NCBI GenBank assembly: GCA_963735775.1
Contig: CAVTMG010000002.1
Coordinates: forward strand, 459,904 to 523,903
DNA length: 64,000 nt
Source: an uncultured Gammaproteobacteria bacterium
GTDB taxonomy: Bacteria; Pseudomonadota; Gammaproteobacteria; Steroidobacterales; Steroidobacteraceae
Direction: 5' to 3'
Shown here: in pieces, positions 7,624-52,272 of the stretch
Layout: each line of letters opens with the position of its first letter
Position numbering within the stretch: position 1 is the stretch's first letter
Position numbers and translations under genes: made by a program
The notes under the pieces: generated by a model
The model's input: only the letters and a program-made list of their open reading frames with translations
Database searches by the model: none
What the model was told of the DNA's origin: nothing

Positions 7624-8386
7624 ATGATCCTGAAGTACTATCACGCCGAACCGGTCGCCAATTCACTCAAGTCAATGGTGCCGCTGCTCGAGAAGCGACT
7701 CGCCTTCGAGAGCGTGTACGTGGACTTGCACAAATTCGAGCAACATTCGGCCTGGTTCGTGGCCATAAATCCGGAAGGGCCAGGTGCCGGTACTCGACCA
7801 TGACGGCGCCATCATCACGCACAGCAGCGTGATCAACGAATATCTGGAGGACGTATTTCCGGAAACGCCGCTGCGTCCGCGCGATCCGCAGGGTGCGGCG
7901 CGCATGCGCTACTGGAACAAGTTCGTCGACGAGCAGGTCATGAATCACGTATCGATGCACGGCTGGCATCGGCTGGTCGGCATCATCGCCCGCAAGGTCG
8001 AGAGTGGCGAATTCGAGAAGCTGATGGAGCGATGCCGCTGCCGGATCAGCGCAAGAAATGGACCACGGCGCGCTCGGGCTTCAGCGAGGCGGATCTCGCC
8101 AATGCCACCGACAAGATCATCTACGCGGTCGACAAGGTGGAGGCGCAGCTCAGCCGCACCCAGTGGCTTGCGGGCGATGACTATAGCCTCGCCGACATCA
8201 ACTTCTACTCCATGTGCGGCATGATGGTGGAGCGCATGTTTCCGGAGTTGCAGATAGGCCAAGCGCTGTCCGCGCCTGGTGCAGTGGCGGGAGAAGATGA
8301 CCGCGCGACCGGCAATAGCCAGGGCGCTCGCCGGCGAGGACCGCACCGCGCCGGGATTGCGCACCTGGACCGGCCACGCCCGCTGA
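7624..8386 (+). pseudogene. glutathione S-transferase family protein, about 3 frameshifts
   Basis: MILKYYHAEPVANSLK..NPEG(Q)VPVLDHDGAIITHSSVINEYLED, then ..WLAGDDYSLADINFY.., then the end ..RCPRLVQWREKMTARPAIARAL. One indel is an extra C at 7780-7781. Confidence 0.75.
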
Positions 8387-8408
8387 AGCCGGCTGCACGC
8401 AGGTGCCT

Positions 8409-9300
8409 TCAGGCCCTTCGTTGTCGCTGTAGCTTTCGCGGCGCAGTCTTCTCGAACCCGATGCGCTGTTCGTGTCCGGCATCGGCAGGAAAATCGCGGA
8501 AATCCGCGAGAACCTCATCGAACAACTGCCCGCAGCTCCTCCTTGAACTCCGGGTGCGTGAAGATGTGGAAGCGATTTTCGCGCATCGCCTCGAGCACGC
8601 GCGCGGCGACCACGTCCGGCTCCATGCCGAATTCATGGACGTCCGCAAGCCGCTTGCACGTCTTCTGGTCCACCGGCTTGGCGCCGCCCTTGAGCCGTCC
8701 GGCCGGATCTCGTCGCTGGCATAGATATAGGATTTGACCAGACCCGGGCACAGCACCGAGACGCCGATGCCATGCGGCGCGAGGCTGGCGCGCAGCGATT
8801 CGGACATGCCGCGCACGGCGAATTTGGTGGTGTTGTAGATGCCCGGCACGCCGGCGGCGAGGAAGGCGGCCATCGAAGCGGTATTGACGACGTAGCCGCC
8901 GGCACCAGAGGCGATCATGCGCGGCACAAACGTCATGACGCCATTGATCGGGCCCGTGAAGATTAACTCCCATGACCCAATCCCAGTCGTCGATAGCTCG
9001 AGTCCTCGATCGTCTGGAACAGATTGATGCCGGCATTATTGAACAGCAGGCTCACCGGCCCGAACTTCGCCTCCACCGCATCGGCAGCCTCGCGTCATGG
9101 CCTCGCGCGAGCTGACACATCGAGCTGCACGCCCATGACCATCGGATTGTTGAGCGACTGCAGCGCCGCGTCGATGGCGTCCTTGCGGATGTCGGCGATG
9201 CGCAACCTTGCAGCCTTGGCAAGCAGCGCGCGCACCAGTCCGATACCGATGCCGTGGGCGCTCCGGTCACGAATGCGGTGCGGCCTGCAAAATCCTTCAT
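8409..9300 (-). pseudogene. short-chain dehydrogenase/reductase (SDR), multiple frameshifts
   Basis: MKDFAGRTAFVTGA..HGIGIGL (TGxxxGIG), ..NTASMAAF..YNTTKFAVRGMSE (YxxxK) and the C-terminus FHIFTHPEFKEELR.. lie in different frames. It is a paralogue of the adjacent SDR. Confidence 0.7.
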
Positions 9301-10209
9301 GACTTGGATCCTCTGTGGCGCGCGGTTTCCGCGGCGTGGATGGGGTTGCGAAACAGCACAGCTGAAAGTGCGCTTGTACTCGTCGTTTTCGGGCAGATCG
9401 GGCACCGCCGCGCACATCGCCTGCGCGCGATCGTCGACACCCTGCCGGAATTCGCTGTGGGTCAGGATGTAGAGCTCATCATTGAGGATGCCCTGCAGCA
9501 CGCGCTCGCCGACCTGCTCCTTGGTCCATGAACAGATGGAAGAAGTGGCCGCCCTGCTGACGGCGCTTGTCGGCCTCGGCGTAGCCGGTTTCAGCCAGCT
9601 CGGCCGGGCGCGTCTTGGCCTGCCTCGGCAATGTTCGATTGCACGGCGCCGGGGCAAAAGGCCGAGCAGATGATGCCCTGCGGCTCGAGTTCGGCGCGCA
9701 TGCATTCGATCATGTGCACCACGGCACCCTTGGAGGTGCCGTAGATGGTCGCGCCAGGATGCGGCATCAGTCCCGACATGGAAGCGGTATTGACGATATG
9801 GCCGCCTTCGCCGTGCCGCTTGGATGCGCGGCAGGATGGTGACGATGCCGTTGATGCGTCCTCCGAGGTTCACCCCCATCACCCAGTCCCAGTCGGCGAA
9901 GGTCGCCAGCTGCGTCGGCCCGACGACCGCGACGCCGGCGTTGTTGCAGAGCAGATGAATCTTGCCGAAGCGCGCTTCCGCCGCGTCGGCGGCGCGCGCG
10001 TAGTGCGGCCCGGTCGGTCACGTCGAGCTTGAGCGCCAGAGTGTGCTGCGGGCGAGCCCAGCTCGGCCTGCGGCGGCCTGCAGATGATCATCGCGAATAT
10101 CGGCGATGACTACGTTCATGCCCGCGCCGAGCAGCGCCTTGGCGATGCCGAGTCCGATGCCACTCGCCCCGCCGGTCACGAACGCGGTCTTGCCTGGCAG
10201 ATTCTGCAT
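9297..10209 (-). pseudogene. short-chain dehydrogenase/reductase (SDR), multiple frameshifts; tandem paralogue
   Basis: MQNLPGKTAFVTGGASGIGLGIAKAL, ..YGTSKGAVVHMIECMRAEL.. and ..LYILTHSEFRQGVDDRA.. lie in different frames. Its stop overlaps the start of the downstream SDR (ATGA). Confidence 0.7.
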
Positions 10210-10322
10210 GCGCTCTCGCCCCTGGAGTCAGCGGGTTAACGAAGGGCTGGACAGGCCAACGCGATTGCTATTGTATCTGACACCGACAAAGCCTAGCAGG
10301 GCAACGGGGGAACAAAGCGATC

Positions 10323-11701
10323 ATGAGTGCAATCACGCCTTTGGTCGAGCCGCAGCCGCAGCCGCAGCCGCAGTCGCAGTCGGGGCCCAAGCCCTGGCCG
10401 TCGCGTCGTGCCGCCTATTACGCGCTGGCCGTCATCATTCTCGCCACCATGTTGAATTTCTTCGATGCGCAGGTGTTCGGGATGATGGCGCAGCGGATCA
10501 AGGTCGATCTGCATCTGAGCGATGAGCAGCTCGGCTTTCTGATCGGGCCCGCCAACATCATCTTCTACGTGGTGGTCGGCATACCGATGGCGCGCCTGGT
10601 GGATATCTATTCCGCGCAATATCGTGCTGGCGTGCGGAATCGCCGCCATCGGCGGCATCACCGCGCTCGGCGGCCTGGCGCAGAGCTTCTGGCAACTGTT
10701 CTGCAGCCGCATGCTGGTGGGTGCCGGCGGCTCGGCGCATGCACCGGGCGCCTATTCGATGCTGGCCGACTACTTCCCGCCGGCACGGCTGCCGCGCGCC
10801 ATCGGCATACTGCAACTGGGATTCATCGGCGGCAATTCACTCGGGATATTTCTGGGCGGGCACCTCACCAGCTGGGCGGCCGCGTGGCCGATCAGCCATT
10901 GGATGGGGCTTAGCATGCACGGCTGGCAGCTGGATCCTGATGATGGTGGGGGCGCCGGGGCTATTGATCAGCGTGCTGCTGTTGCTGGCAAAGGAGCCAC
11001 CGCGGCGCGGCACCGCCATGCAGGGCAAGGCAATGCCGGTCATGGTCGTGGTGCGCGAGATCTGGTTGCGCAGGGCGATCTACCTGCCGCTGTTCCTCGG
11101 ACTGGCTCTCATCGCCACGCAGACGATGGGCATTCAGCCCTGGCGCGCGCCATTCCTGATCCGGACCTATGGCTGGAGCGAAGCGCGCATCGGCAGCTGG
11201 TATGGGGCGATATTCCTGGTGGCGTCGCTGATCGGCGCGACCTTCGGCACGCTGCTGGTGGAATGGCTCAGCAAGCGCTACAAGGATGCGAACGTGCGCG
11301 CCTCGACCATCCTGTTTGCGGTGGCGGCGCCGTTCGAGATCATCGCCCCGCTGATGCCCACCGGCGAGCTGTCGCTGCTGTGCATCGGTGTGGCACTGGT
11401 TTGCGGAATCGCTTCGGCGGTGCCGCAAAACGCCGCGATCCAGCGCATCACGCCCAACGAGATGCGCGGCCAGGTGACCGCCATCTACCTGTTCATGTTC
11501 ATCGTCTTTGGCGCCCTCGGCAGCCAGTTGATCGGCTCCATCACGCAAAGAGTTTTTCATTCGGACGCGGACCTGTGGAAAACCATCGTCTTGACGGCGT
11601 CGGTGCTGATGCCGCTGGCGGCGCTCACGATCTCGCGTGGCATCAAACCCTATGGCCGCGAGATCCAGCGTCTCGAGGCGCTCGAGAATCGCGCAGCCTG
11701 A
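10323..11701 (+). pseudogene. MFS transporter, 2 frameshifts
   Basis: Three collinear hydrophobic fragments are present (..YYALAVIILATMLNFFD.., ..LACGIAAIGGITALGG..RMLVGAGGS.., ..LLISVLLLLAKEPP...). Shifts are near 10615 and 10930. Confidence 0.75.
10350..10383 (+). repeat. hexanucleotide tandem repeat (CCGCAG)x4 + (TCGCAG)x2 encoding PQPQPQPQSQS in the MFS N-terminus
   Basis: Read directly from the sequence: gagccgcagccgcagccgcagccgcagtcgcagtcg. Confidence 0.9.
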
Positions 11702-11708
11702 CAGCAAC

Positions 11709-12521
11709 ATGACTGGCGAGCCCAGGAGCACGCGCGCGCCGATCGCCTACGTCGGACGCGGGGTCGCGCGGCCGCGCTACTATGCCAACGATCACAGCCG
11801 CGACCTGCTCGAGATCGCGCCGGTGGAAATGCCGATCGCCGACACCCGGGGCTGCCACGCCGCGCTTGATGCCGACGGCTTCACGCTGCTCGAACATCGC
11901 AGCGCCATCACCGACTTCACCGACCGCGCGTCGCTCGAAGCCGTTTACCGGGTTGAGGTGGTCGAGCTTATCAGCTCGCTCACCGGCGCCGATCTGGTCG
12001 TGGTCAACAGTCCCGGGGTACTGCGCTTCAGCGAGAAGTCGGCAAACTCGGGCGCGCTGGACAACTCCCGCCCGGCGCGCTTTGCCCATGTCGACATCAG
12101 CGATGCGACCGCCGGCGCCTTTGCGCAACGGGTCGCGCCCGCAGGCCGGACACTGGCGCGGTCCGCTCATTTCAACATCTGGCGCGCCATCTCGGAGCCG
12201 CCGCAGGACGTACCGCTCGCGCTCTGCAATGCGCGCAGCGTTTCCGGGCGCGAGTTATTGCTTGCCGATGCCATATTCGATACCCCCGGCAAGCCGGAAT
12301 GGTCGTTTGAAGGGCTGGTGGTCGCACACGATGCCGCACACCGCTGGCATTGGTTCTCGGAGATGACGCGGGATGAGGCACTGGTGTTCAAAACCCACGA
12401 CAGCGATCCGCTGCGCGCACACTGCGTGCCGCACGTGGCATTCGACAACCCGCATTGCGGCTCGCACACAGCGCCGCGCGCGAGCATCGAGATGCGTGCC
12501 ATCGCGCTGTGGTTCGGCTGA
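11709..12521 (+). CDS. CmcJ/NvfI-family (Fe(II)/2OG-oxygenase-like) protein
   Basis: 270 aa and intact. Contains ..ARFAHVDISD.., ..FNIWRAI..PQD.PLALC.., ..HRWHWFSEMTRDEALVFKTHDSD.. and PHVAF. It is a paralogue of 12547..13392. Confidence 0.65.
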   Translation: MTGEPRSTRAPIAYVGRGVARPRYYANDHSRDLLEIAPVEMPIADTRGCHAALDADGFTLLEHRSAITDFTDRASLEAVYRVEVVELISSLTGADLVVVNSPGVLRFSEKSANSGALDNSRPARFAHVDISDATAGAFAQRVAPAGRTLARSAHFNIWRAISEPPQDVPLALCNARSVSGRELLLADAIFDTPGKPEWSFEGLVVAHDAAHRWHWFSEMTRDEALVFKTHDSDPLRAHCVPHVAFDNPHCGSHTAPRASIEMRAIALWFG

Positions 12522-12546
12522 AGCCGCGCCGGGGCCGCGAGCGCCC

Positions 12547-13392
12547 TCAGTGGTTGGAGAAGTAGGCCATGCCGCGAAATTCCATGGAGCGGCGCCGCTG
12601 CGCATCAGGCCGGCTGTGATCGCGAAAAGCGGTGTGCGGGCAACGCCATGCGGTACTGTGATCGGAATCATAAAACTTGATGAGCACCACCTCATCGGGC
12701 GTCATGTCCGGGAAGTACCACCAGCGATGGTTGGGAGAGTGGCGAAAGATGGTCGCGGCGGTCATGTCCGCCTCGCCTTCGATGGGCGCGAATAAGGCAT
12801 CGCCGGTCGGGATCTCATCGACGTCGATCTTGGTGTTGTGCGTGCCTTCATCGTCGGACACCGAGCGGCCCTCGCAAAGCGCCAGGGGCGTGTCCTGCGG
12901 CGGCGCAGACAGCGCGCGCCAGAGGCTGAAGGCCAGGAAACGGCGATAGCCGCCGCCGTCGGGCCGGTCGCGGCGATAGAGCCGGTTTGCTATGCGCTCG
13001 GCGGATCGCTGCGTGAAGTCCACGTGCGCTTCGGCCGCGGGAGGCTGCACCGTGTCGCTGGTCTGGACCGAGTCGCGCATCATTCCGCCCATGGGGATGA
13101 CCATGTCGGCCCCGGTCAGGCGCTTGACCACTTCGCGGACCTCAGCGGCATAAGCACTGTCTGCGGAGTAATTCTGCGGCCATGCGCTAACCTGCGTGAC
13201 GTGCCGCGACAGACAAAAGCCGTGCTCATCCAGCGAGAAAGGCCCGGCAAGGCGCGCGTTACGGATGGTGACCTCGTACGGGGCATAGACGCCGGTATTC
13301 AATTCCTTGCCCGGGGCCCAGAAGCGGCGATTGATGCGCGAGCTCGGCAACAGATAATCGATCTTGGCCTTTACGGCTGCAATTTGACTCAT
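12547..13392 (-). CDS. CmcJ/NvfI-family (Fe(II)/2OG-oxygenase-like) protein
   Basis: 281 aa and intact. Contains ..AEAHVDFTQ.., ..FSLWRAL..PQDTPLALC.., ..HRWWYFPDMTPDEVVLIKFYDSD.. and PHTAF. It is the last gene of the minus-strand operon and starts 3 nt after the upstream stop. Confidence 0.65.
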   Translation of the reverse strand: MSQIAAVKAKIDYLLPSSRINRRFWAPGKELNTGVYAPYEVTIRNARLAGPFSLDEHGFCLSRHVTQVSAWPQNYSADSAYAAEVREVVKRLTGADMVIPMGGMMRDSVQTSDTVQPPAAEAHVDFTQRSAERIANRLYRRDRPDGGGYRRFLAFSLWRALSAPPQDTPLALCEGRSVSDDEGTHNTKIDVDEIPTGDALFAPIEGEADMTAATIFRHSPNHRWWYFPDMTPDEVVLIKFYDSDHSTAWRCPHTAFRDHSRPDAQRRRSMEFRGMAYFSNH

Positions 13393-13395
13393 GGC

Positions 13396-13860
13396 TCAGC
13401 TCGACGCGGCGGCGACGAAGTCGAGACTGCCCCGGCGTTCAAGAAAACGCCAGCCCTCGGCGGTGTGGCGCAATTCGTCCCTATAGCTGCCAACCAGCGG
13501 CGGCTGCGCTGATTGCACCGGCGGCCCCTCGTGCGCCGCGGCGTGACCGGTAAACAGCAGGATCTGGCTGGTAGCGCTGGCACGCGCCGTGCCCTCGAGC
13601 GCCACCAGCACATTGGCCACGATGTGCCGGGCGATGCGGTGCGGCCGGGATCGGAATGCCTTGAGAATCGCCGTGCGTCCTTCGATGAATTCCTGCGGCG
13701 TGCTCGGCCGGTTCATTCGGCCATCCTCGGTGAACAGTGCCGCCACAGCCTCCCAATCTTCGGCATCGGTGAGCGCGGCATAGCGTGTGATGAGTTCGGC
13801 GATTTCGGCCTTGAGCATCCAGGCGCGGGCCGCGTCCCCGTTCACCGCACCTTCAGCCAT
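13396..13860 (-). CDS. NTF2/SnoaL-like domain protein (short form)
   Basis: MAEGAV..AEIAELITRYAALTDAEDWEAVAALFTEDG.. shows the typical SnoaL_4-type N-terminus. The ATG at 13860 overlaps the end of the upstream gene. Confidence 0.65.
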   Translation of the reverse strand: MAEGAVNGDAARAWMLKAEIAELITRYAALTDAEDWEAVAALFTEDGRMNRPSTPQEFIEGRTAILKAFRSRPHRIARHIVANVLVALEGTARASATSQILLFTGHAAAHEGPPVQSAQPPLVGSYRDELRHTAEGWRFLERRGSLDFVAAASS

Positions 13861-14566
13861 TCGCAAACCCTTCGCGCGCGCGCGAATTGTCGAGCGCGAT
13901 CGGCTTGCCGGTCACCGGGTGCGGGTAGTGGAAAGCTACCGTGTCGGTCGCCGGCCACAGCCGCGGCGGCGGATCGATCAGCTCGTCGGGACCGAGCGGG
14001 TCCTTGGGAAAGCGCGTGGTCGCCATCGGTATGAAGTCGATCGGCGTCTTCGCCCAGCCCTCGTCGAAGCTGCCGTGCCAGAACGGAAAATAGCGCAGGA
14101 CCTTGATTTTCCAGACGCCGTTTTCGCGCACATAGTCGTTCTCGTAGATGCCGCCCTCGAACCAGGCACGCTGGGTGCCCTTGGCGCTCTCGTGCAGGCC
14201 GGCCTGCATCATCGAGCGGCCGCGCACCTTGGCGCTGGCACGGTCCGGGGCGACGTCGATGACCATCTGCAATTGCGGATGTTCGAGCAGCCAGCCGTAG
14301 CGTGGCCCGTTGTGGCCCTGGGTGAATTGGGTCTGAAAGCGCTCGATGTACAGACGCCTCACCCCGGCCTTGCCCTTGTATATTCCGCCCAGGAACCAGA
14401 CATCGCCGGTATCGGAAAACAGATCGACCACCTCGTTGTACTGCGACTTGTCTATGAAGTAGCCGTAGGTGTATTGAATGCTGCGGATCTGGTGAATGTC
14501 TTGCTGGATGCCGAGTTCGTGTTCGAGTTTCCGGATCCGCGCCTCGAGGGCGGCGATGTCGGTCAT
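13853..14566 (-). CDS. NTF2/SnoaL-like domain protein (long form, ~237 aa)
   Basis: The ATG at 14566 is preceded by AGGAGAA. Contains MTDIAALEARIRKLEHELGIQQDIHQIRSIQYTYGYFID..GGIYENDYVRENGVWKIKVL. It is a paralogue of 15214..15900. Confidence 0.65.
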   Translation of the reverse strand: MTDIAALEARIRKLEHELGIQQDIHQIRSIQYTYGYFIDKSQYNEVVDLFSDTGDVWFLGGIYKGKAGVRRLYIERFQTQFTQGHNGPRYGWLLEHPQLQMVIDVAPDRASAKVRGRSMMQAGLHESAKGTQRAWFEGGIYENDYVRENGVWKIKVLRYFPFWHGSFDEGWAKTPIDFIPMATTRFPKDPLGPDELIDPPPRLWPATDTVAFHYPHPVTGKPIALDNSRAREGFANG

Positions 14567-14629
14567 GGCATTCTCCTGTTGCTGCCGTCGGCGCGGTCGT
14601 GCCGCGAGTTTCAGTCCTATCATAGCAAG

Positions 14630-14643
14630 CTAACAATTGTTAG
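14630..14643. promoter_or_regulatory. perfect 14-bp palindrome CTAACAATTGTTAG; candidate MarR operator in a divergent promoter
   Basis: Lies 64 bp upstream of the ATG at 14566 (minus) and 32 bp upstream of the ATG at 14675 (plus). Related copies are at 15167 and 16461. Confidence 0.55.
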
Positions 14644-14674
14644 AGTAAAACACTGATTCGAAGGGGAAAAACCT

Positions 14675-15139
14675 ATGCACGTGCGCGTCCTTTCCGCCCT
14701 CCTGCCGGTCCTCCTGGCCGCGACCCTGGCTGTGGCGCCCAAGTTCGCCGACGCCGCCTCCTGCCGCCTCACGCCCAAGCAGGTCGTGACGCACTTCATG
14801 ACCACGCTCTATGTCGACAAGCAAGTGCGTGCGGCATTCGAGACCTGGGTCGCTCCGGGGTACATCCAGCACAATCCGCTCGCGCAGACCGGGCGCCAGG
14901 CCGCGATTGATTTCCTGGAGCCGTTCTTTGCGCAGCACCCGGATATCAATTACTCAATCAAACGCATCATCGCCGAAGGCAATCTGGTCGCGGTGCATTC
15001 CCACGGCGTATTCACCGCCGGTGACCCCGGCATCGCCGTGGTCGACATTCTGCGGGTCGAAGGCTGCCGCGTGGTCGAGCACTGGGACGTGGCACAGCCG
15101 GTGTCGGCAAAATCGGCCAATACCAATGGTATGTTCTGA
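14675..15139 (+). CDS. secreted NTF2/SnoaL-like protein (signal peptide)
   Basis: Has the signal MHVRVLSALLPVLLAATLAVAPKFADA, then ..YIQHNP..NLVAVHSH..DILRVEGCRVVEHWDV, a SnoaL-like pattern. Confidence 0.65.
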   Translation: MHVRVLSALLPVLLAATLAVAPKFADAASCRLTPKQVVTHFMTTLYVDKQVRAAFETWVAPGYIQHNPLAQTGRQAAIDFLEPFFAQHPDINYSIKRIIAEGNLVAVHSHGVFTAGDPGIAVVDILRVEGCRVVEHWDVAQPVSAKSANTNGMF

Positions 15140-15166
15140 TCACAGGCCGCGCGCTCGCTTTGTTTC

Positions 15167-15180
15167 CTAACATTTGTTAG
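15167..15180. promoter_or_regulatory. CTAACATTTGTTAG; second copy of the candidate operator
   Basis: Lies 34 bp upstream of the ATG at 15214. With flanks it matches the reverse complement of site 1 at 15 of 16 positions (AGCTAACAAATGTTAG versus AGCTAACAATTGTTAG). Confidence 0.5.
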
Positions 15181-15213
15181 CTTGAGTTTCGAAAAGAACG
15201 ATTGGGGGCTGGT

Positions 15214-15900
15214 ATGTCTGACACCGAGGCGCGGCTTGCCGCCTTGGAGCATCGCGTGGGCGAGCTCGAGGACATCAACGCCATTCGCCGTCTGCACTGG
15301 GCCTATGGCTACTACATCGACTTCAACCGCGCCGAGGACGTGGTGCAGTTATTCGCCCGCGACGGGGCGGTGGTGTTCCTCTCGGGGGAGTACCGCGGGC
15401 ATGAGGGCGTGCGCAGGCTCTACGGCACCTGGTTCCAGAACTATTTCACCCGCGGCGCCAACGGCCCGGTCTATGGCTTGCTGCTCGATCATTTTCAGAT
15501 GCAGGACATCATAACGATCGCGCCGGATCGGCAGACGGCCAAGGGACGATTCCGGGGACTGCTCATGGGGGGAAGCCACGAAACCCGGGATTACAAGCCC
15601 GAGGGTCTGCCGTTGCAGTTCTATGAAGCCGGCATTTATGAAAACGACTATGTCCGTGACGGCGGGGTTTGGAAGATCAGGCGCCTGGATTACATGATGC
15701 AATGGCAGGCCGATTATGAGCGCGGCTGGTCGAAGACCATTGCGCACCTGCAGCCGGCCACGCTGACCTTTCCCGAGAACCCGCTGGGGCCGGACGCGTT
15801 GCTGCCGCCGGACGAGGTTCGCCGGACCTGGCCGCATCGCCAGGACGTGCCGATGCATTTCGCGCATCCGCGCTTCGGCGCATTGCTGGCAGGCACTTGA
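15214..15900 (+). CDS. NTF2/SnoaL-like domain protein (long form, ~228 aa)
   Basis: MSDTEARLAALEHRVGELEDINAIRRLHWAYGYYID..AGIYENDYVRDGGVWKIRRL. It is a paralogue of 13853..14566. Confidence 0.65.
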   Translation: MSDTEARLAALEHRVGELEDINAIRRLHWAYGYYIDFNRAEDVVQLFARDGAVVFLSGEYRGHEGVRRLYGTWFQNYFTRGANGPVYGLLLDHFQMQDIITIAPDRQTAKGRFRGLLMGGSHETRDYKPEGLPLQFYEAGIYENDYVRDGGVWKIRRLDYMMQWQADYERGWSKTIAHLQPATLTFPENPLGPDALLPPDEVRRTWPHRQDVPMHFAHPRFGALLAGT

Positions 15901-15922
15901 ACCGCGGTGCTGCCCTCAGCCA

Positions 15923-16414
15923 TCACGCCCGCGGGACATGCGGGCGCCGTTCACTGGGCTGCCATTGCAGTACCCGCTCATCCAGTCTTGCCAGAAGCCG
16001 TCTCAGGCTGGCGCGCTCGCGGGTGGTCAGGATGCCGAATAGGAAACGCGCGATCTGCGCGATGTTGGGCTTCATCGCCAGGTACGTCCTGGCGCCACGG
16101 GCGCTGATGCGGTACGGCTTGCGGCGGCGGTTGCCGGAATTGGTTGCCGGCTCGACCAATTTCATGGCGTGCAGCGAGGCCAGGGCGCGGCTGACGTTCA
16201 TGGCCTGCATGCCCATCAGTTCGGCCAGGTCGTGTCCGGCTGATTCGCCCTCGTCGGCAAGCGCCATCAGGATGCGCAGCTCGTTCGAGCTGCAGCCCGC
16301 GAGGTCGGCGACGCCATCGCGCATTGGGCGGCTGATCAGCGAGGCGAATCGCAGCATGGCCACCAATAGGCCGATCTCGCGGTCCATTCGAATCGATTTC
16401 TTCCGCCTGGTCAT
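15923..16414 (-). CDS. MarR-family transcriptional regulator
   Basis: 163 aa from the ATG at 16414 (MTRRKKSIRMDREIG..). The winged-HTH region is ..SNELRILMALADEGESAGHDLAELMGMQAMNVSRALASLHAMKLVE..RRRKPYRISARG. The upstream extension of the track ORF is not protein-like. Confidence 0.8.
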   Translation of the reverse strand: MTRRKKSIRMDREIGLLVAMLRFASLISRPMRDGVADLAGCSSNELRILMALADEGESAGHDLAELMGMQAMNVSRALASLHAMKLVEPATNSGNRRRKPYRISARGARTYLAMKPNIAQIARFLFGILTTRERASLRRLLARLDERVLQWQPSERRPHVPRA

Positions 16415-16460
16415 TATGGTCAAGCGCCTGTCGTCGCCGAAGAACTCCCTGGGAGCAAAC

Positions 16461-16476
16461 GTTAACATTTGTTTGG
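16461..16476. promoter_or_regulatory. GTTAACATTTGTTTGG; third, degenerate copy of the candidate operator
   Basis: Lies 47 bp upstream of the marR ATG in the marR / TonB-receptor divergent region. It matches site 2 at 12 of 14 positions. Confidence 0.4.
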
Positions 16477-16808
16477 GTCTTGAATGGGCTGATTGCGTTT
16501 GATTTACTTGCAAAAAAGCCCGCGCCTGGGGATTCGTCTCATGGGCCGCAAGCCAGTCAGCCCAATGAGCCTGTCGCGCGCGATGGCCGGCCATGGCCGG
16601 GTGTGGTTTTTTTGGCCTCGCTTTATCGGCGTGGCGCGATTTTTTGTTCACCATTGGGAGAGTTTGACGCCCGAAAACACAGCTAGACTCGTGCATTCGA
16701 AAAATGCCGCGAGTGGCAACGGCGTGGGCGTGCGCGAAACGCATCATTTCGTGACAAGGCGTCTGAAAGCCTGGATACGCATAATCGGTCAAATGGGGGG
16801 CGATTCTC

Positions 16809-19214
16809 ATGAGCTCGACAGTTCAAGCTAGCGTAAATCGATTGCTGAAGTATGGGCTGCTGCCGGCCTTGGCCGCGGCGCTGCTCGCGGGACAGGCGGC
16901 GGCCGCCGATCAGACGGCCACCAGCACAGCCACCACTGCAACCTCCAATACGGCTCCCGGCACGGATAACGGCGCGCTGGAGGAAATCGTCGTCACCGCG
17001 CAGTTCCGCCAGCAGAATCTGCAGGACACGCCGGTAGCCATCACCGCGGTCAATGCCGAAATGATGGAAGAGCGCGGCCAGACGACGCTGCACGAACTGG
17101 GCCAGCACGCGCCGAATGTGGAGCTGGTTGAAACCGGCGGTGCATTTGGTCCGGGCATGACCGCCACGATCCGCGGCATCGGCCAGGCTGACTTCGACCC
17201 GGCGTTCGCGCCCGGCGTCGGTATCTACATCGACGATGTCTACTACACCAGCCTGACCGGCTCGAACTTCGCGCTGCTGGACCTGGACCGCGTCGAGATC
17301 CTTCGCGGCCCGCAGGGCACGTTGTCGGGGGCCAATTCCGAGGGCGGCTCGATCAAGCTGTACACGGTCAAGCCGCAGGGCGATGACAGCGGCTCGTTCA
17401 AGGCCAGCTACGGTGAGCGTAACCTGATCGACCTGCAGGCGATGGGGGACGTGTCGCTGATCAAGGACACGCTGTTCCTGCGTCTGTCTGGCGTATCGCA
17501 CCAGCAGGACGGCTATGTGACCCGCGTCGACTACGGCTGCGCGTTTCCCAATTCCGGCATCCCGGCGGTCGGTGGCCTGATGGGCGATTGCGTTGCCGGC
17601 CACGAAGGCGGCAAGGACTATCATGCCGGGCGCGCGGCACTGCGCTGGTTGCCGGCCGACAACTTCGAGGCGAACCTCACGGCTGACGTGACCATCGATA
17701 ATTCCCAGTCCGCCGCCGTTACGCTGCTAGCGGCGAATCCGGTCTTAGGGGTTCCCACGGCTTTCAATTCGGGCTTCCCGCCGGGCAACGCAAAGGGCGT
17801 GGCCTATGACGATCGTTTCGTCCCCAGCAATCCGTACGTGAGCTACGCCTCGTTCTGCGGCGTGGGCATCGCCGGCAACACCTACTGCTTCTCGCCGGAC
17901 ACCCACAGCAAACAATGGGGTACGAATCTGACGCTGGACTGGAAACTCGCGCCGGACCTGGCCGTGAAATCCATCACCGCCTACCGCGCGTTCGACACCC
18001 AGTGGACCGAGGACAACGACGTGTCGCCGTTGTCCGGATCCCTCGGTGCGGAACACCTGATCAACCATACCTTCACGCAGGAACTGCGACTGAATGGCAA
18101 GGTCGGCAGCGTGCTCGACTACACGATCGGTGGTTTTTTCCTGGATCAGGTCACGACCTATCCGACGCACCAGATCCTGGACTACATCGCCCCGACGCTT
18201 GATTTCGAGTTCCTGGGTGATGACCCGATCAGGGAACAGGATTACGCCGCCTTTGGCGACGCCACCTGGCACATTACCGATGCGCTGAGTCTCAATGGCG
18301 GCGTGCGCTACACGCACCAGCAGAAGAACTACACCTACGAGCGCGAGAATCCGCCCACCATTGGTGGCGGCGACAGCGTTTTCTTTCCGCCGGGCTTTTC
18401 GAACACCGTGGGCAAGTTCTCCGGTGGCAAGACCGACTACCGCGCCAACCTGGAATATCGATGGACGCCGGATGTGATGACCTACGCCAGCGTGTCGACC
18501 GGCTTCAAGGGCGGTGGCACCAACCCGCGTCCGTTCAATGCCGCGCAGGTGCAGCCATTCGGACCGGAGTCCCTGACCGCTTACGAAATCGGCGCCAAGA
18601 CCGACTGGTTCGATCATAGCCTGCGTCTGAACGTTTCCGGCTTCTACAACAAGTACAAGGACATCCAGGTGGTGCTGCTGAGCTGTCCGCAATTCGGTGG
18701 CCCCGGCCCGTGCGCCGCACCGGTCAATGGCGGTGACGCGAACGTCTACGGTGCCGAGTTGGAAGCCGAGTATCGCTTCGGTGGCCTGTCCATCGACGGC
18801 AGCGTCAGCCGCCAGCACTTCACATACACGTCGATTGACCCACTGTCGGGTATCACGCTTGGCTCCCAGGAAGCAGGGTTCCAGCCGGACAAGTGGAGCG
18901 TCGGCGCACAGTATGAGGCCCGGATCCCGAATGGTGGCTCGATCACGCCGCGCCTGGACTACGTCTACGAGGCCGGCGCTCAGACCATCACCATTCCGGA
19001 TGCATTCAGCTACCTGCCGGGCTATCACGAGCTGAACAGCCGCATCACTTACAGGCCGGAAGGCGGCAGGTGGGAGCTGTCCGTGGTCGGGACGAACCTG
19101 GCCAACAAGCTCTGGTACATATCGGAATTCGATCTTTACGAACAATCGGGAGCGGATTACGGCACCCCGGCGCCGCCGCGAACAATCTGGCTGGAGTTCA
19201 AAACGAAGTTGTGA
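16809..19214 (+). CDS. TonB-dependent outer-membrane receptor
   Basis: 801 aa and intact. It has a signal peptide and a plug region (EEIVVTAQFRQQNLQDTPVAITAV..IRGIG..GVGIYIDDV..LDLDRVEILRGPQGTL), followed by a long beta-barrel with aromatic-rich repeats. Confidence 0.9.
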   Translation: MSSTVQASVNRLLKYGLLPALAAALLAGQAAAADQTATSTATTATSNTAPGTDNGALEEIVVTAQFRQQNLQDTPVAITAVNAEMMEERGQTTLHELGQHAPNVELVETGGAFGPGMTATIRGIGQADFDPAFAPGVGIYIDDVYYTSLTGSNFALLDLDRVEILRGPQGTLSGANSEGGSIKLYTVKPQGDDSGSFKASYGERNLIDLQAMGDVSLIKDTLFLRLSGVSHQQDGYVTRVDYGCAFPNSGIPAVGGLMGDCVAGHEGGKDYHAGRAALRWLPADNFEANLTADVTIDNSQSAAVTLLAANPVLGVPTAFNSGFPPGNAKGVAYDDRFVPSNPYVSYASFCGVGIAGNTYCFSPDTHSKQWGTNLTLDWKLAPDLAVKSITAYRAFDTQWTEDNDVSPLSGSLGAEHLINHTFTQELRLNGKVGSVLDYTIGGFFLDQVTTYPTHQILDYIAPTLDFEFLGDDPIREQDYAAFGDATWHITDALSLNGGVRYTHQQKNYTYERENPPTIGGGDSVFFPPGFSNTVGKFSGGKTDYRANLEYRWTPDVMTYASVSTGFKGGGTNPRPFNAAQVQPFGPESLTAYEIGAKTDWFDHSLRLNVSGFYNKYKDIQVVLLSCPQFGGPGPCAAPVNGGDANVYGAELEAEYRFGGLSIDGSVSRQHFTYTSIDPLSGITLGSQEAGFQPDKWSVGAQYEARIPNGGSITPRLDYVYEAGAQTITIPDAFSYLPGYHELNSRITYRPEGGRWELSVVGTNLANKLWYISEFDLYEQSGADYGTPAPPRTIWLEFKTKL

Positions 19215-27821: not shown

Positions 27822-28735
27822 ACGCCACCCGGCTGAGCCGCCGCATCGTGCCGGTGCAAGATCTCATTCGAGTTCTTTCCGCCCGGCGACGAGAAAATGG
27901 AGCAGACGCTGTGGCAGGCGATCCAGCGTCTGGCGCCGCTGGCGCCGCGCTTTGTCTCGGTCACCTACGGTGCCGACGGCTCGACGCGCGAACGTACCCA
28001 TCAGGTGGTGATCGCGCGTGCTGCACGAGACGCCGCTGACGCCGGCGCCGCATCTGACCTGCGTCGGTACGACCGCGGGCAGATTCTGGATATAGCGCGC
28101 GGCTACTGGCACGCAGGCGTGCGTCATATCGTCGCATTGCGTGGCGATCCGCCGCAGTCCAGCGAGGGCTATCGTCCGCATCCAGGGGGCTTTCCCTACG
28201 CGGTGGATCTGGTGCGCGGCCTCAAGAGCGTCGCGGATTTCGAGATCTCGGTGGCGGCATATCCCGAAGGGCATCCGGAAGCGCCGAGCGCCGGCCGTTC
28301 GATCTGGACAATCTCAAGACCAAGCTCGATGCCGGCGCTGATCGCGCCATCACGCAGTTCTTTTTCGACACCGAGGTATTCCTGCGCTTTCCGCGATCGC
28401 TGCGCCGCTGCCGGTATTACGCGCCAGCCTGGTACCGGGCATTCTGCCGATCACGCGCTTCCCGCAGATGCTGCGCTTTGCCGACGCGCTGTGGCACGCA
28501 GCGTGCCCGACTGGCTGTGCCAGCGCTTCGAGGGGCTGGAGGAGGATGCCGATACGCGCCGCATGATCGCGGCGGCAGTCGCCATCGCCCAGGTCGAGCA
28601 GCTGGCCCGCGAGGGCGTGGAGGAATTTCATTTCTATACGCTCAATCGCGTCGAGCTGACCTACGCCATCTGTCATGCGCTGGGTGTTCGTGCGGCCGCA
28701 GAGCGACGCGCGCGGCCTGTGCGCAGCAGCCGGCC

Positions 28736-28739
<4 letters not shown>
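27818..28739 (+). pseudogene. metF: 5,10-methylenetetrahydrofolate reductase, many frameshifts
   Basis: Fragments include ..FEFFPP..EKMEQTLWQAIQRLAPLAPRFVSVTYGADGSTRERT.., ..HIVALRGDPP.., ..FEISVAAYPEGHPEA.. and ..EGVEEFHFYTLNRVELTYAICHALGV. They lie in alternating frames. Confidence 0.85.
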
Positions 28740-32473
<3,734 letters not shown>

Positions 32474-32477
<4 letters not shown>

Positions 32478-34327
32478 CCAACGCAGTGCGGCCGCCTGCA
32501 CACGCCGCGGCGCCGCCGGGCGGCAGCCCGGAGGTGTTGCGCGGATTCTTCGGTGTGTTCCGCTACAGCCGTCGCGCGATCGGACTGGTGTGGAGCACCA
32601 ACCGCGCCTTGCTCGCGGCGCTGGCACTTCTGACCATCATCGCCGGATTGCTGCCGGCGGGCGTGGCCTATATCGGCGCGCAAATCGTCGATGCCGTGGT
32701 GGCGGCACGCAACCTGCCGGCGCTGGGGGCCGCGCGCGTGCTGCGCCTGGTGCTGATCGAGGGCGTGCTGGTTGCCGCTCTGGCCGGCGCCCAGCGCGGG
32801 CTGTCGCTGTGCCAGGCGCTGCTGCGCGCGCAACTGGGCCAGCGTGTCAACGTCATGATCCTCGAGAAAGCCCTGACGCTCGAGCTGCAGCAATTCGAAG
32901 ACTCTGAGTTCTATGACAAGCTCACGCGCGCGCGGCGCGAAGCCTCGAGCCGGCCGCTGAGTCTGGTGATGCGCACTTTCGGCCTGGCGCAGAATGCCAT
33001 TTCGCTATTGAGCTACGCCGCGCTGCTGGTGCGATTCTCACCGTGGACGGTGTTGATCCTGCTGCTGGCAGGCCTGCCGGCCTTCCTCGCCGAAGCGAAG
33101 TTTTCCGGCGATGCCTTTCGCCTGTTCCGCTGGCGTTCACCGGAAACGCGCATGCAGACCTACCTGGAGACCGTGCTGGCGCGCGAAGACCACGCCAAGG
33201 AGGTCAAGCTGTTCGGGCTTGGCCCGCGCCTGCTGCAACGCTATCGCGATATTTTCACGCGCCTGTACCGCGAAGATCGCGCGCTGTCGATTCGCCGCGA
33301 TGGCTGGGGTTTTGCGCTGGGTCTGCTCGCCACCACGACTCTGTACGGCGCCTATGCCTGGATTGCGCTGTCGACCGTTCGCGCCCTGATCAGCCTCGGG
33401 CAGATGACCATGTACCTGCTGCTGTTTCGCCAGGGCCAGGCCGCGGTCACCGCCATCCTGTCTTCGGTCGGCGGCATGTACGAGGACAATCTCTACCTGT
33501 CGACCTTGTACGAATACCTCGAGACCGAAGTGACACGCGTGCCGGGTAGTGCGCTGCGCGGGCCCGATCCCGCCGATGGCGTGCGCTTTGAGCGGGTGAA
33601 TTTTACCTATCCCGGGGCAGCAGCCCCGGCGTTGATCGATATCGATCTGCACCTGCCGCCGGGCGCGAGCCTTGCGCTCGTGGGCGAGAATGGTTCGGGC
33701 AAGACCACGCTGATCAAGCTGTTGACGCGCCTTTACAACCCGGATTCAGGGCGCATCCTGCTGGATGGACTGCCATTGCCTGAATGGCAGGACCAGGCCC
33801 TCAAGGCGCGCATCGGCGTGATCTTTCAGGACTTCACGCGCTACCAGATGCTGGTGGGGGAGAACGTGGGTGCCGGCGATGAACGCTACTTCGAGGACGA
33901 ACAGCGCTGGCGCGATGCCGCGGCCAAGGGGCGTGCGGCGGAATTCATCGAGCAACTGCCCGGCGGCTATCAGACACAGCTGGGCAAGTGGTTCCGCGAC
34001 GGCCAGGAGCTTTCCGGCGGCCAGTGGCAGAAAGTAGCGCTGGCGCGTGCCTTCATGCGCACCCAGGCCGACGTGCTGGTACTGGATGAGCCCACGGCGG
34101 CGATGGATGCACGCGCGGAAGCGGAGATTTTCGAGCACTTTCGTACTCTGGCTCGCGATCGCATCACGATCCTGATTTCGCACCGTTTCTCCACCGTGCG
34201 CATGGCCGACCAGATCGCCGTGCTGGATCGTGGCCGCATCATCGAGAAGGGCAGCCACGAAGCGCTGATGGCGCTGGGCGGACATTATGCGCAATTGTTT
34301 TCGCTGCAGGCGCGCGGCTACCGTTGA
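32474..34327 (+). CDS. ABC exporter, fused permease + ATPase
   Basis: A GTG at 32474 overlaps the metH stop (GTGA). It has an N-terminal 6-TM region, Walker A GENGSGKTT, signature LSGGQWQKVALARA and Walker B VLVLDEPT. Confidence 0.85.
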
Positions 34328-50974: not shown

Positions 50975-52174
50975 TTACCAGCGATACAGCCGCGCAACAT
51001 ACCCCTTGGCAAAGTCGGCCGGGCCCGGGGGCAGTTCGATGAAGCCATCGGTCAAGGCCAGGGAGGCGAAATCCCCGGAGCCGTTGGTCGGGCACGGCGT
51101 TGCCCAAGGGCGCGCCCACTCGTCGTGGGCCAGGCGCACGGGTACGAAGCCGGTCAGCGCCGTCGACCACTGGAGAGGTTCGGCCAGGGCCACACGCTCG
51201 CCCGTCGATGGCGGCATGCCCATGGCCCGGTACAGCGCCGGGATCACATAACGCACCAGGCACACCAGGGTCGAGACCGGGTTGCCCGGCAATGCAAACA
51301 CCGAGTGACCGTCGCCGGAGGTGCCGTACCACATGGGCCTGCCCGGACGTTGCGCAACCCCGTGCAGCACACAGCGCACGCCGATGTTTTCAAGCGCCTT
51401 GGGCACCAGGTCGAAGCGTCCCATCGACACGCCTCCAGACAGGATCAGAACCTCATGGGTATTCAGATGCAGGCGCAGCCGGTCGTGCATTTGTGCGGCA
51501 TCGTCAGCCACATGATCGTCGGCAACCCGGTGAAAACCGCGCTGACGAAGTGCCGCCGCTACCGCGTAAGCGTTCGAGCGGCGAATCTGGTGCGGTTCGA
51601 TCGGATCACCCGGCTCGATCAGTTCATTGCCGGTGGAGATCACGGCGATCGCCGGCTGGCTGCTGACGCGCACGCGCGCCATGCCGGCCGAGGCGGCCAC
51701 TGCAATCTCGGGAGCGCGCAGGACACTGCCCGCGGCCAGCAGCAGGGCTCCCTGGCTGCGATCGCTGGCGCGTCGGTGCACATTGCCCCAGGGTGCCGGA
51801 GTCAAGCCGGTCTCGAGCTCTACCTGGCCGTCGGCGCTGCGCAGCCGTTCAACCGGCACCACACTGTCGCAGCCGCCGGGTAGTACCGCCCCGGTCATCA
51901 CCTCGATGCAATGCTCGCCCGAGGCCAGTACGGTGGGCAGGTCACCGGCAGCCTGCGTGGTTTGAACCCGGAAGCGGCGCCGCCCGCGGGCGGCGGCACT
52001 GGAGGCGAGCGCGACCCCGTCCATGGTTACACGGTCGAATGGCGGCTGGTCGCGTTCGGCGTAGACGTTCTCGCGCAGCACGGCCCCGGCACATTGCCCC
52101 ACCGGCAACGATTCAATCGGCAGGCAGGCCAGGTGGGCGCTGATGAGCTTTTCTGCGGCTTGCGGATCGAGCAT
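50975..52174 (-). CDS. moeA: molybdopterin molybdotransferase
   Basis: 399 aa. Contains ..PPFDRVTMDGVA.., ..ISTGNELIEPG.., ..SGGVSMGRFD.. and ..ALPGNPVS. Confidence 0.88.
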   Translation of the reverse strand: MLDPQAAEKLISAHLACLPIESLPVGQCAGAVLRENVYAERDQPPFDRVTMDGVALASSAAARGRRRFRVQTTQAAGDLPTVLASGEHCIEVMTGAVLPGGCDSVVPVERLRSADGQVELETGLTPAPWGNVHRRASDRSQGALLLAAGSVLRAPEIAVAASAGMARVRVSSQPAIAVISTGNELIEPGDPIEPHQIRRSNAYAVAAALRQRGFHRVADDHVADDAAQMHDRLRLHLNTHEVLILSGGVSMGRFDLVPKALENIGVRCVLHGVAQRPGRPMWYGTSGDGHSVFALPGNPVSTLVCLVRYVIPALYRAMGMPPSTGERVALAEPLQWSTALTGFVPVRLAHDEWARPWATPCPTNGSGDFASLALTDGFIELPPGPADFAKGYVARLYRW

Positions 52175-52198
52175 TAGCGCATGTTACGCTCAAGGCAT

Positions 52199-52272
52199 GC
52201 GCCCGTAGCTCAGTTGGATAGAGCATCAGGCTTCGAACCTGAGGGTCGGGAGTTCGAATCTCTCCGGGCGCG
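52199..52272 (+). tRNA. tRNA-Arg (anticodon UCG)
   Basis: Hand-folded cloverleaf: acceptor GCGCCCG/CGGGCGC, D arm GCTC-AGTTGGATA-GAGC, anticodon arm TCAGG-CTTCGAA-CCTGA and T arm GGGAG-TTCGAAT-CTCTC. It is 74 nt and the CCA is not encoded. Confidence 0.85.

Follow-up and report, generated by a model that had tools for sequence, protein, structure and literature searches.

A candidate island for lignin-dimer catabolism around an LdpA orthologue in an uncultured gammaproteobacterium

Overview

We analyzed 64,000 nucleotides (nt) of DNA (the window) from an uncultured Gammaproteobacteria bacterium of the family Steroidobacteraceae (GCA_963735775.1, contig CAVTMG010000002.1, positions 459,904 to 523,903 of the forward strand), focusing on a cluster of 12 genes at window positions 7624-19214. 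This 11.6-kb cluster is probably an accessory island for the uptake and catabolism of lignin-derived aromatic dimers, as judged from the enzyme and transporter families that it encodes. At its centre stands a predicted orthologue of LdpA, a lyase that cleaves a β-1-derived lignin dimer. Carbon-carbon-linked lignin dimers are the residue left after chemical depolymerization, and the bacterial enzymes known to cleave them are few and come almost entirely from two sphingomonad strains. Three aspects of the locus are new: the LdpA-centred island in Gammaproteobacteria, an operon that pairs a third clade of the lyase family with a CmcJ/NvfI-type oxygenase (a family with no link to lignin in the literature that we searched), and a palindrome that is conserved across related loci.

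An LdpA orthologue

The gene long-B (15214-15900, + strand; 228 amino acids (aa), Pfam SnoaL_4) matches PDB entries 8ABT, 8ABU and 8ABV with E values of 3e-116 to 6e-108. These structures are of LdpA, the sphingomonad diarylpropane lyase, a homotrimer that converts erythro-1,2-diguaiacylpropane-1,3-diol (here erythro-DGPD), a β-1 lignin dimer in ring-opened form, to lignostilbene and formaldehyde without a cofactor and via a quinone methide (PMC9942872). Long-B shares 74% identity with NaLdpA, compared with 81% between NaLdpA and SpLdpA. Mutagenesis of LdpA identified Tyr35, Asp40, His97, Glu143 and Tyr147 as essential, with contributions from Tyr74 and His183; the published scheme distinguishes Motif I (the His97-Asp40 dyad, with Tyr35 and Tyr147 as oxyanion tyrosines) from Motif II (the Glu143-Tyr165-Gln170 triad, described as exclusive to LdpA), and assigns His183 to the β-ring phenol (PMC9942872). 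All nine active-site residues that we checked (Y35, D40, Y74, H97, E143, Y147, Y165, Q170 and H183) are retained in long-B, which also falls inside the monophyletic LdpA clade of the family tree (clade B, below), where Q170 is invariant (24/24 sequences). By these sequence measures long-B is an LdpA orthologue, with a predicted function as a diarylpropane γ-formaldehyde lyase. Published surveys place ldpA orthologues in Alphaproteobacteria only, and the complete PcfL pathway almost exclusively in Sphingomonadales.

Directly 5’ of long-B lies a gene for a signal-peptide protein of 154 aa that is probably periplasmic (14675-15139, + strand; Pfam SnoaL_2 and SnoaL). Its PDB relative, 3G0K, has no known function. 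This gene accompanies LdpA in 23 of 62 loci, and is also present in a Novosphingobium locus (L001). With long-B, the long-A gene and the short SnoaL_4 gene described below, it makes up the set of four NTF2/SnoaL-like genes proposed in an earlier note made from the sequence alone; Pfam assigns three of them to SnoaL_4 and the signal-peptide form to SnoaL_2.

A third clade of the LdpA/PcfL family

The second long gene, long-A (13853-14566, - strand; 237 aa, Pfam SnoaL_4 80 bits), is 44% identical to NaLdpA (E 6.6e-52 to 8ABT across residues 1-225). Long-A and long-B both carry the GIYENDYVR..GVWKI core to which the earlier note had drawn attention. That note knew of no function for this ~230-aa NTF2 form; it corresponds to the LdpA/PcfL family of cofactor-free γ-formaldehyde lyases (PMC9942872, PMC11323797), and one of the two copies is the protein that is 74% identical to LdpA (8ABT).

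For phylogenetic placement, we constructed a neighbour-joining tree of 142 sequences of the LdpA/PcfL family, which resolves three monophyletic groups. Clade A consists of long-A and 80 orthologues (minimum internal identity 69%), clade B is LdpA (61%), and clade C contains proteins encoded in the gene context of PcfL (63%). Median identities between clades are 44% for A-B, 52% for A-C (range 45-57%) and 41% for B-C. Clade C was equated with PcfL through gene arrangement, not through the sequence of Saro_0796: its seed is a SnoaL_4 gene from Novosphingobium (L002) that stands in the published order pcfL-ferD(ALDH)-ligW(Amidohydro_2)-...-lsdD(RPE65)-MarR, where ALDH denotes aldehyde dehydrogenase, and the L002 fragment retrieved a large clade of proteins that are 65-85% identical. 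Several of the PcfL-context NTF2 proteins (P0276, P0300, P0305, P0312 and others) are labelled “carotenoid cleavage dioxygenase” by JGI, a label that looks as if it had been carried over from the adjacent RPE65 gene.

The catalytic dyad and Glu143 are kept in all three clades, as are the four tyrosines. Long-A retains Y35, D40, Y74, H97, E143, Y147 and Y165, and all seven are invariant in clade A. Position 170 is histidine in place of glutamine, and position 183 aspartate in place of histidine, in 81/81 clade-A sequences; the Gln170 and His183 that characterize LdpA are therefore both replaced. Clades A and C share the histidine at 170 and an acidic residue at 183, while clade A has a loop that is shorter by five residues, with Asp183 invariant. 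By sequence, long-A thus belongs to the LdpA/PcfL family, broadly defined, and within it to a third clade in which we found no characterized member; it is a candidate stilbene-forming γ-formaldehyde lyase.

The relationship of long-A to PcfL bears directly on what the island does. PcfL is the phenylcoumaran (β-5) lyase of N. aromaticivorans and is 44% identical to LdpA; the paper that describes it counts proteins of >50% identity as PcfL homologues (PMC11323797). Were long-A isofunctional with PcfL, the island would serve β-1, β-5 and β-O-4 catabolism, and the two CmcJ-type oxygenases would be accessory. This reading draws on the >50% criterion, on clade A being closest to the PcfL-context clade (median 52%, maximum 57% identity), on the shared histidine and acidic residue at 170 and 183, and on the frequent presence near clade-A genes of RPE65 and DUF3237 genes, both of which serve β-5 catabolism. 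It has to be set against the monophyly of clades A and C, each with a minimum internal identity of 63-69%, and against the invariant D183 and shortened loop of clade A. A contig from a Parasphingorhabdus metagenome-assembled genome (MAG) (L086) holds a clade-C gene and a clade-A gene ~35 kb apart, and only the clade-C copy stands in the pcfL-ALDH-Amidohydro_2-MFS-RPE65-MarR arrangement of Saro_0796-0803; an ALDH gene lies within 3 kb of the clade-A gene in 0/80 loci. Orthology of long-A and PcfL is not supported by the clade analysis, the synteny or the co-occurrence on one contig, and we regard equivalence of function as somewhat unlikely, while still a serious alternative.

A 2026 review names LdpA and PcfL only, and mentions 62 NTF2-superfamily homologues without a known role in Sphingobium sp. 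SYK-6 (PMC12997858); Kato et al. noted unexplained extra “ldpA orthologues” in one Novosphingobium. Many public proteins of 450-1000 aa (P0122, P0124, P0125, P0130 and others) contain two or three tandem LdpA-like domains with 30-38% identity to long-A. Because LdpA is a homotrimer, these proteins may be covalently fused pseudo-trimers.

CmcJ/NvfI-type oxygenases and the long-A operon

Long-A is the first gene of a minus-strand operon (14566->12547) whose tight spacing, described in the earlier note, is borne out by the gene map: long-A overlaps the next gene by 8 nt, and a 3-nt gap follows. The middle gene encodes a short SnoaL_4 protein of 154 aa (13396-13860, - strand; 76.6 bits), whose only PDB relative is an uncharacterized protein, 2RFR. 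The last gene encodes a CmcJ/NvfI-type Fe(II)/2-oxoglutarate (2OG) oxygenase, CmcJ-B (12547-13392, - strand). A second oxygenase of this type, CmcJ-A (11709-12521, + strand), converges on CmcJ-B, with 25 nt between the two genes, and begins 8 nt past the stop codon of a gene for a major facilitator superfamily (MFS) transporter.

The two proteins had been read as a convergent CmcJ/NvfI pair; both do carry the AHVD and PH(V/T)AF motifs, and profile searches agree: CmcJ-A and CmcJ-B score 252.4 and 259 bits, respectively, with NCBIfam model NF041278 (cutoff 80). The family was settled by NCBIfam, as the copy of Pfam-A that we used holds no CmcJ/NvfI model; the label in the public collection is PF27522. 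All 98 orthologues examined, of both types (39 of type A), share H123, D125, H253 and R267-x-S269. The metal triad aligns with the HCD...H motif of NvfI (PMC8292354), and the RxS motif may, by analogy, bind 2OG. In a Foldseek search with an AlphaFold2 model of CmcJ-B (pLDDT 77.8, pTM 0.78), only NvfI (E 4.8e-18, TM 0.70-0.73) and CTB9 (1e-16) were strong matches.

The characterized CmcJ/NvfI/CTB9 members are all biosynthetic (PMC8292354, PMC6004482), and our literature search for CmcJ or NvfI in combination with lignin or sphingomonads found nothing relevant. CTB9 oxidizes an aryl methoxy group beside a phenol, closing the methylenedioxy bridge of cercosporin (PMC6004482, PMC9808054); by analogy, chemistry of this type would be relevant to guaiacyl units. 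We also considered CmcJ-B as a stand-in for a LigM-type O-demethylase or another neighbour, and rejected this, as no anticorrelation was seen across related loci. CmcJ-B and RPE65 show a weak positive association (p = 0.03, uncorrected, with loci that are phylogenetically non-independent).

Conserved neighbourhood of clade-A lyases

The clade-A scan used one genome per species, with neighbours counted by tblastn over 80 loci and confirmed with Pfam. Clade-A genes that are 74-94% identical occur in these 80 loci from Gamma-, Alpha- and Betaproteobacteria, the best match (94%) being from a Steroidobacteraceae MAG. Carriers include Steroidobacteraceae and other Gammaproteobacteria MAGs, many Sphingomonadales, Hyphococcus, Marinicaulis, Parvularcula, and one MAG each of Hydrogenophaga and Woeseiaceae. 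The Steroidobacteraceae and Sphingomonadales with the operon, like its carriers among relatives of Hyphococcus and Parvularcula and the Hydrogenophaga MAG, include organisms of soil and fresh water. Among cultured strains, the clade-A/CmcJ-B operon is present in Sphingosinicella terrae KCTC 52780, Chakrabartia godavariana PRB40, Hyphococcus aureus KCTC 62394 and Novosphingobium sp. FSW06-99.

CmcJ-B lies directly 3’ of the clade-A lyase on the same strand in 52/79 loci, with the short SnoaL_4 gene between them in 28/79. CmcJ-A is nearby in 34/62 loci and is on the opposite strand every time. Genes of the RPE65 (lignostilbene-dioxygenase) type are found near the lyase in 42/80 loci (within 3 kb in 31), Meth_synt_2-like genes in 40/80, genes of the type of SDR301 (one of the island’s two short-chain dehydrogenases (SDRs), below) in 39/80, DUF3237 genes (the PhcF/PhcG/PinX family) in 29/80 and NmrA-like genes in 26/80, and a GCV_T (LigM-type) gene is directly 5’ of the lyase in 24/80. 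LdpA (25/62), a TonB-dependent outer-membrane receptor (TBDR; 24/62) and a MarR regulator (22/62) are also recurrent neighbours. These neighbours make up the usual gene repertoire of lignin-dimer catabolism. The frequent RPE65 gene fits, by analogy, the sequence of a lyase followed by a stilbene dioxygenase that is seen with LdpA and PcfL.

Some related loci differ from the window around the oxygenases. In L006 (11540-13000 and 13986-15461) and likewise in L007, one RPE65 gene separates the CmcJ pair and a second separates CmcJ-A from the MFS gene; in L005 the latter position is taken by an Amidohydro_2-like gene.

A palindrome shared by three promoter regions

The promoter regions of the long-A operon, of LdpA and of the divergent MarR and TBDR genes share a 14-nt palindrome, CTAACAWTTGTTAG; the copies are recorded without strand. 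A perfect copy, CTAACAATTGTTAG (14630-14643), is a candidate MarR operator and lies between the divergent long-A and periplasmic SnoaL genes, in their promoter region. A second copy, CTAACATTTGTTAG (15167-15180), is 34 nt 5’ of the LdpA start codon, and a weaker copy with two mismatches, TTAACATTTGTTTG (16462-16475), lies between MarR and TBDR, where the MarR gene starts. Three of the four sites in the window thus fall in island promoter regions, and the motif scan gave 8 matches (both strands) against 1.17 expected, a number reached in 0/100 shuffles. The fourth site, CGAACAATTGTTCG (2231-2244, two mismatches), falls within hemB/hemL, a region rich in errors, and probably matches by chance.

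Across the 1.49 Mb of related loci, 52 matches with at most one mismatch fall in 32 loci, where roughly one match would be expected. They recur at orthologous positions: 5’ of LdpA (the same position in at least 10 related loci, Novosphingobium included), 5’ of long-A (L005, L006, L007, L018 and L035) and beside the MarR start (L008, L009, L016, L018, L034 and L049). The palindrome is also found 5’ of the RPE65 gene that separates the two CmcJ genes in relatives. This distribution is good evidence, at the level of sequence, for a single regulon made up of LdpA, the long-A operon and MarR/TBDR, with MarR as the putative palindrome-binding protein. Together with the synteny across bacterial classes, the shared palindrome also argues that the adjacency of these genes is not accidental.

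The MarR gene named in the earlier note (15923-16468, - strand; 181 aa in the call based on L085, a near-identical relative) scores 33.4 bits with Pfam MarR_2 (cutoff 27), and its orthologues in L005-L007 are 83-90% identical. It is not a member of the Saro_0803 family (20.6 bits, cutoff 200). Its frame is open for 295 codons (15923-16810), up to the TBDR start; the L085 call starts at 16468, and the alignment with L007 favours an alternative start at 16417 (164 aa). The weak palindrome copy overlaps the longer MarR start, so that the start and the operator geometry are uncertain.

The palindrome is absent before the GST (glutathione S-transferase), SDR and MFS genes, and therefore the two halves of the island may be regulated separately. 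This opens the alternative that the halves (GST-SDR-SDR/MFS-CmcJ-A and MarR-LdpA-long-A-TBDR) are unrelated modules that happen to abut, each with its own substrate and regulator. Further genes lie between the halves in L006 and L007, and in the Parasphingorhabdus contig a tandem SDR and MFS module is joined to a PcfL-type cluster, as this reading would predict. The halves nevertheless adjoin in L005, L006, L007 and L085, CmcJ-A accompanies the clade-A lyase in more than half of the loci scored for it, and all of the parts belong to lignin-dimer enzyme families. We consider two unrelated modules to be unlikely and favour a single island. The Parasphingorhabdus arrangement (L086, 4588-7964) consists of a tandem pair of ~300-aa SDRs divergent from an MFS gene and directly 5’ of the PcfL-type gene; it resembles Saro_0793-0795, genes beside pcfL that are strongly induced by a β-5 dimer in a published RNA-seq table. 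The SDR-SDR/MFS module seems to move between different lyase clusters.

Boundaries and frame-breaking indels

The gene map was built from codon-position G+C, profile searches and comparison with L085, as the window has ~65% G+C and spurious frames crowd lists of open reading frames (ORFs). Housekeeping genes flank the cluster on the left (hemL, hemB, cysH, cysG, cysK and apbE) and on the right (cydBA, dsbA, def, bipA and metH, then proBA and molybdopterin genes), and we therefore define the cluster as an accessory island of 11.6 kb. The earlier note had placed its start at 8409, where no more than a spurious fragment of an ORF begins, and had missed the GST gene at 7624-8386, with which the cluster begins. 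A search of a plasmid collection with a 12.4-kb query returned only two short matches of 73% identity, indicating no plasmid origin and no annotated relative in that collection. Counts from a scan for promoter and terminator consensus sequences at 7.4-19.5 kb were at chance level. Elsewhere in the window, G+C falls to 0.57 at 52000-54300, with no clear coding frame for ~2 kb; this could be non-coding DNA, foreign DNA or an error-rich patch.

L085 is a 760-kb metagenome contig, found through the CmcJ-B protein, that is 96.4% identical over window positions 2492-23391 and has the same gene order; it does not reach metH. Relative to L085, the window has 51 frame-breaking indels, all at 2.5-10.95 kb and none between 11 and 21.7 kb (among them cysG, 4; cysK, 2; apbE, 11; GST, 3; SDR299, 17; SDR301, 7; MFS, 2). 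The MFS gene is disrupted by two 1-nt insertions at ~10609 and ~10933. The earlier note was right about the families of the MFS and the two SDRs; their ORFs are broken in the window. In L085 every cluster gene is intact, as are cysG, cysK and apbE, and in the window the stretch also breaks housekeeping genes; we therefore read the indels as assembly error in a poorly polished long-read stretch, not as gene decay. Gene calls in the indel-dense stretches are unreliable, and L085 orthologues served as proxies for GST, SDR299, SDR301 and MFS. A second stretch dense in 1-nt indels is at ~28700-32500. The metH gene is split into three or more pieces, and an ORF at 990-2651 has taken in a fragment of hemB.

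The concentration of 29 indels in the GST, two SDR and MFS genes, with none in the eight genes to their right, would also be expected if the left half were a decaying pseudogene remnant and the right half alone were functional. This is very improbable given that cysG, cysK and apbE are broken alike within 2.5-11 kb and metH elsewhere, that the in-frame SDR pieces retain normal SDR motifs without in-frame stops, that mismatches to L085 rise in the same 2.5-11 kb stretch, and that every gene is intact in so close a relative.

SDRs, GST and transporters

The two SDRs are encoded in tandem on the minus strand. SDR299 (8393-9300) has an intact L085 orthologue of 299 aa, whose strongest PDB match is a structural-genomics entry (3IOY, 2e-134), followed by LigO (4YA6, 3.5e-64), LigD (2.6e-59) and LigL (3.4e-55). 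The intact 301-aa L085 orthologue of its paralogue SDR301 (9297-10209) matches LigO (6e-65), LigL (4e-58) and LigD (2e-54). PDB codes were assigned to the Lig SDRs via PMC4858972. The paralogues are ~40% identical to each other (L006 orthologues compared), and both resemble Lig-type Cα-dehydrogenases. SDR stereo-inversion has been described beside ldpA (bioRxiv 10.1101/2023.01.24.525472); the present pair reaches no more than 38-43% identity with the SDR beside ldpA in Novosphingobium (L002/L001) and does not itself adjoin ldpA, and so cannot be called LdpB or LdpC.

The GST (7624-8386, + strand) is a candidate β-etherase. Its intact L085 orthologue (253 aa) has LigF as best PDB match (4XT0, E 1.3e-54 over residues 2-232; next GST, 1e-15). 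Identity to LigF is moderate, and the N-terminal serine of ANSLK, which we take to be the catalytic serine of LigF-type β-etherases, is retained.

The MFS transporter (10323-11701, + strand, divergent from the SDRs) is a candidate for inner-membrane uptake; its L085 orthologue is intact (460 aa, MFS_1) and has weak similarity to aromatic-acid/H+ symporters. An NCBIfam scan of the SDRs, GST, MFS and MarR gave no specific family at cutoff. The TBDR (16809-19214, + strand, divergent from MarR) is, as the earlier note had it, 801 aa long, and has Plug (PF07715, 60.8 bits) and barrel (PF00593, TonB_dep_Rec_b-barrel, 144 bits) domains. It matched no siderophore, B12, heme or other substrate-specific NCBIfam model at cutoff, and orthologues that are 65-73% identical hold the same position in relatives. 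Profile searches placed none of the genes named in that note in unrelated families.

A proposed pathway

Most parts of the island have characterized relatives in sphingomonad lignin-dimer catabolism, although the earlier note did not recognize a characterized pathway. We propose that the TBDR and MFS would bring dimers across the outer and inner membranes, and that MarR would repress the island through CTAACAWTTGTTAG until a pathway compound, presumably, releases it. The LdpA orthologue would then convert erythro-DGPD to lignostilbene and formaldehyde, using the His/Asp dyad and Glu-Tyr-Gln triad and passing through the quinone methide; β-1 cleavage by LdpA is the best-supported step. The Lig-type SDR pair could oxidize or reduce the Cα of dimers, either for stereo-inversion (as LigD/LigL do with LdpB/LdpC) or in preparation for β-aryl-ether cleavage, and the LigF-like GST could cleave the β-ether using glutathione.

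A second module would comprise the clade-A lyase, the short SnoaL_4 protein and CmcJ-B in one operon, with CmcJ-A 3’ of the MFS gene. Long-A would most likely deformylate a different dimer through a quinone methide, as LdpA does, and so yield a product of the stilbene type. The CmcJ pair would most likely oxidize a C-H bond of that dimer, which could be benzylic, on the side chain or, as with CTB9, in an aryl O-methyl group. We favour, as speculation, a split of tasks between an oxygenase that oxidizes and a lyase that deformylates. Taken further, the long-A/short SnoaL_4/CmcJ operon may constitute a new cleavage route for a class of lignin dimers or lignans without assigned bacterial enzymes, in which the oxygenase would first oxidize a C-H bond of the side chain or of an O-methyl group and the cofactor-free NTF2 lyase would follow, releasing formaldehyde via a quinone methide and leaving a stilbene-type product, with MarR co-regulating this operon and LdpA via CTAACAWTTGTTAG. 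We offer this route tentatively, at rather less than an even chance.

Several points weigh against the proposed function of the island. Its functions are all inferred by homology, and the role of MarR from position only. No lignostilbene dioxygenase was found by tblastn in the 64-kb window, and lignostilbene strongly inhibits LdpA as its product (PMC9942872). The window, like L085 and L005, has neither of the RPE65 genes of L006 and L007, the CmcJ genes being only 25 nt apart there, and vanillin and vanillate genes sought in the window were not found either. The distance of the SDR pair from the ldpA-adjacent SDR and the lack of the palindrome in the GST/SDR/MFS/CmcJ-A half count in the same direction. 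The remaining alternative, a biosynthetic or tailoring cluster in which the CmcJ/NvfI proteins and SnoaL cyclases decorate a polyketide or terpenoid, follows from the biosynthetic roles of known CmcJ/NvfI/CTB9 enzymes and from the polyketide cyclases among SnoaL folds (Pfam names), but is scarcely credible with no polyketide synthase, non-ribosomal peptide synthetase, terpene synthase or other scaffold gene in the island or the 64-kb window, a TonB receptor and an importer-like MFS present, an NTF2 gene that is orthologous to a catabolic lyase, and catabolic neighbours (RPE65, LigM-like, DUF3237 and ALDH) across the 80 loci. Of the two roles that the earlier note had allowed, uptake and catabolism of a hydrophobic small molecule across both membranes is thus the one retained, and secondary-metabolite tailoring is set aside for want of core biosynthetic genes.

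The presence of LdpA, together with transporters and a regulator, in gammaproteobacteria that are uncultured yet common in metagenomes from soil extends the range of organisms thought to consume β-1 dimers. If the new cleavage route is real, it would include the first 2OG-dependent oxygenase in bacterial lignin-dimer catabolism. The clade-A lyase, strongly conserved across classes, and the CmcJ/NvfI-type oxygenase with which it is paired provide a concrete starting point among the many NTF2 homologues, and biosensors or controlled expression systems could be built on the conserved operator.

Comparison with known systems

The closest known system is that of LdpA (formerly LsdE; Saro_2805 in N. 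aromaticivorans, SLG_12650 in Sphingobium sp. SYK-6; 8ABT, 8ABU, 8ABV and 8ABW). Long-B matches LdpA in length and in the region of the C-terminal arm, and relatives often have MarR and SDR genes close by. The differences are in the setting: the host is gammaproteobacterial instead of a sphingomonad, no lignostilbene dioxygenase is nearby, and the periplasmic SnoaL_2 gene occupies the place directly 5’ of long-B where an ldpB-type SDR would be. PcfL (Saro_0796) resembles long-A in family, length, similar distance from LdpA (44%) and retention of the catalytic dyad and tyrosines; however, long-A is only ~52% identical to the PcfL-context clade (≥69% within its own), and its neighbours are a CmcJ-type oxygenase and a short SnoaL_4 protein, whereas those of PcfL are ferD and ligW.

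The tandem, diverged SDR pair recalls the enantiocomplementary pairs of SYK-6 (LigD/LigL/LigN/LigO and LdpB/LdpC), while the island, unlike the SYK-6 β-aryl-ether pathway, has no LigE or LigG partner. The island’s oxygenases exceed the CmcJ/NvfI/CTB9 family cutoff threefold and share the metal triad and RxS motif with the family, but are only 23-27% identical to its solved members (7DE2, 7EUS); the known members act in biosynthesis in fungi and actinomycetes, whereas the island’s pair sits in operons of Proteobacteria that appear catabolic and are linked to transporters. For dimer uptake and regulation, the likeness to SYK-6 is one of logic, not of sequence: a TBDR, an inner-membrane MFS and a MarR-type regulator stand beside catabolic genes. 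In SYK-6, DdvK is the MFS transporter that partners the receptor DdvT, and DesR is a MarR-type repressor. DdvT, encoded by ddvT, is described as a TBDR that imports a lignin dimer (PMC8599685), and PhcR as a MarR-type regulator (PMC12447483).

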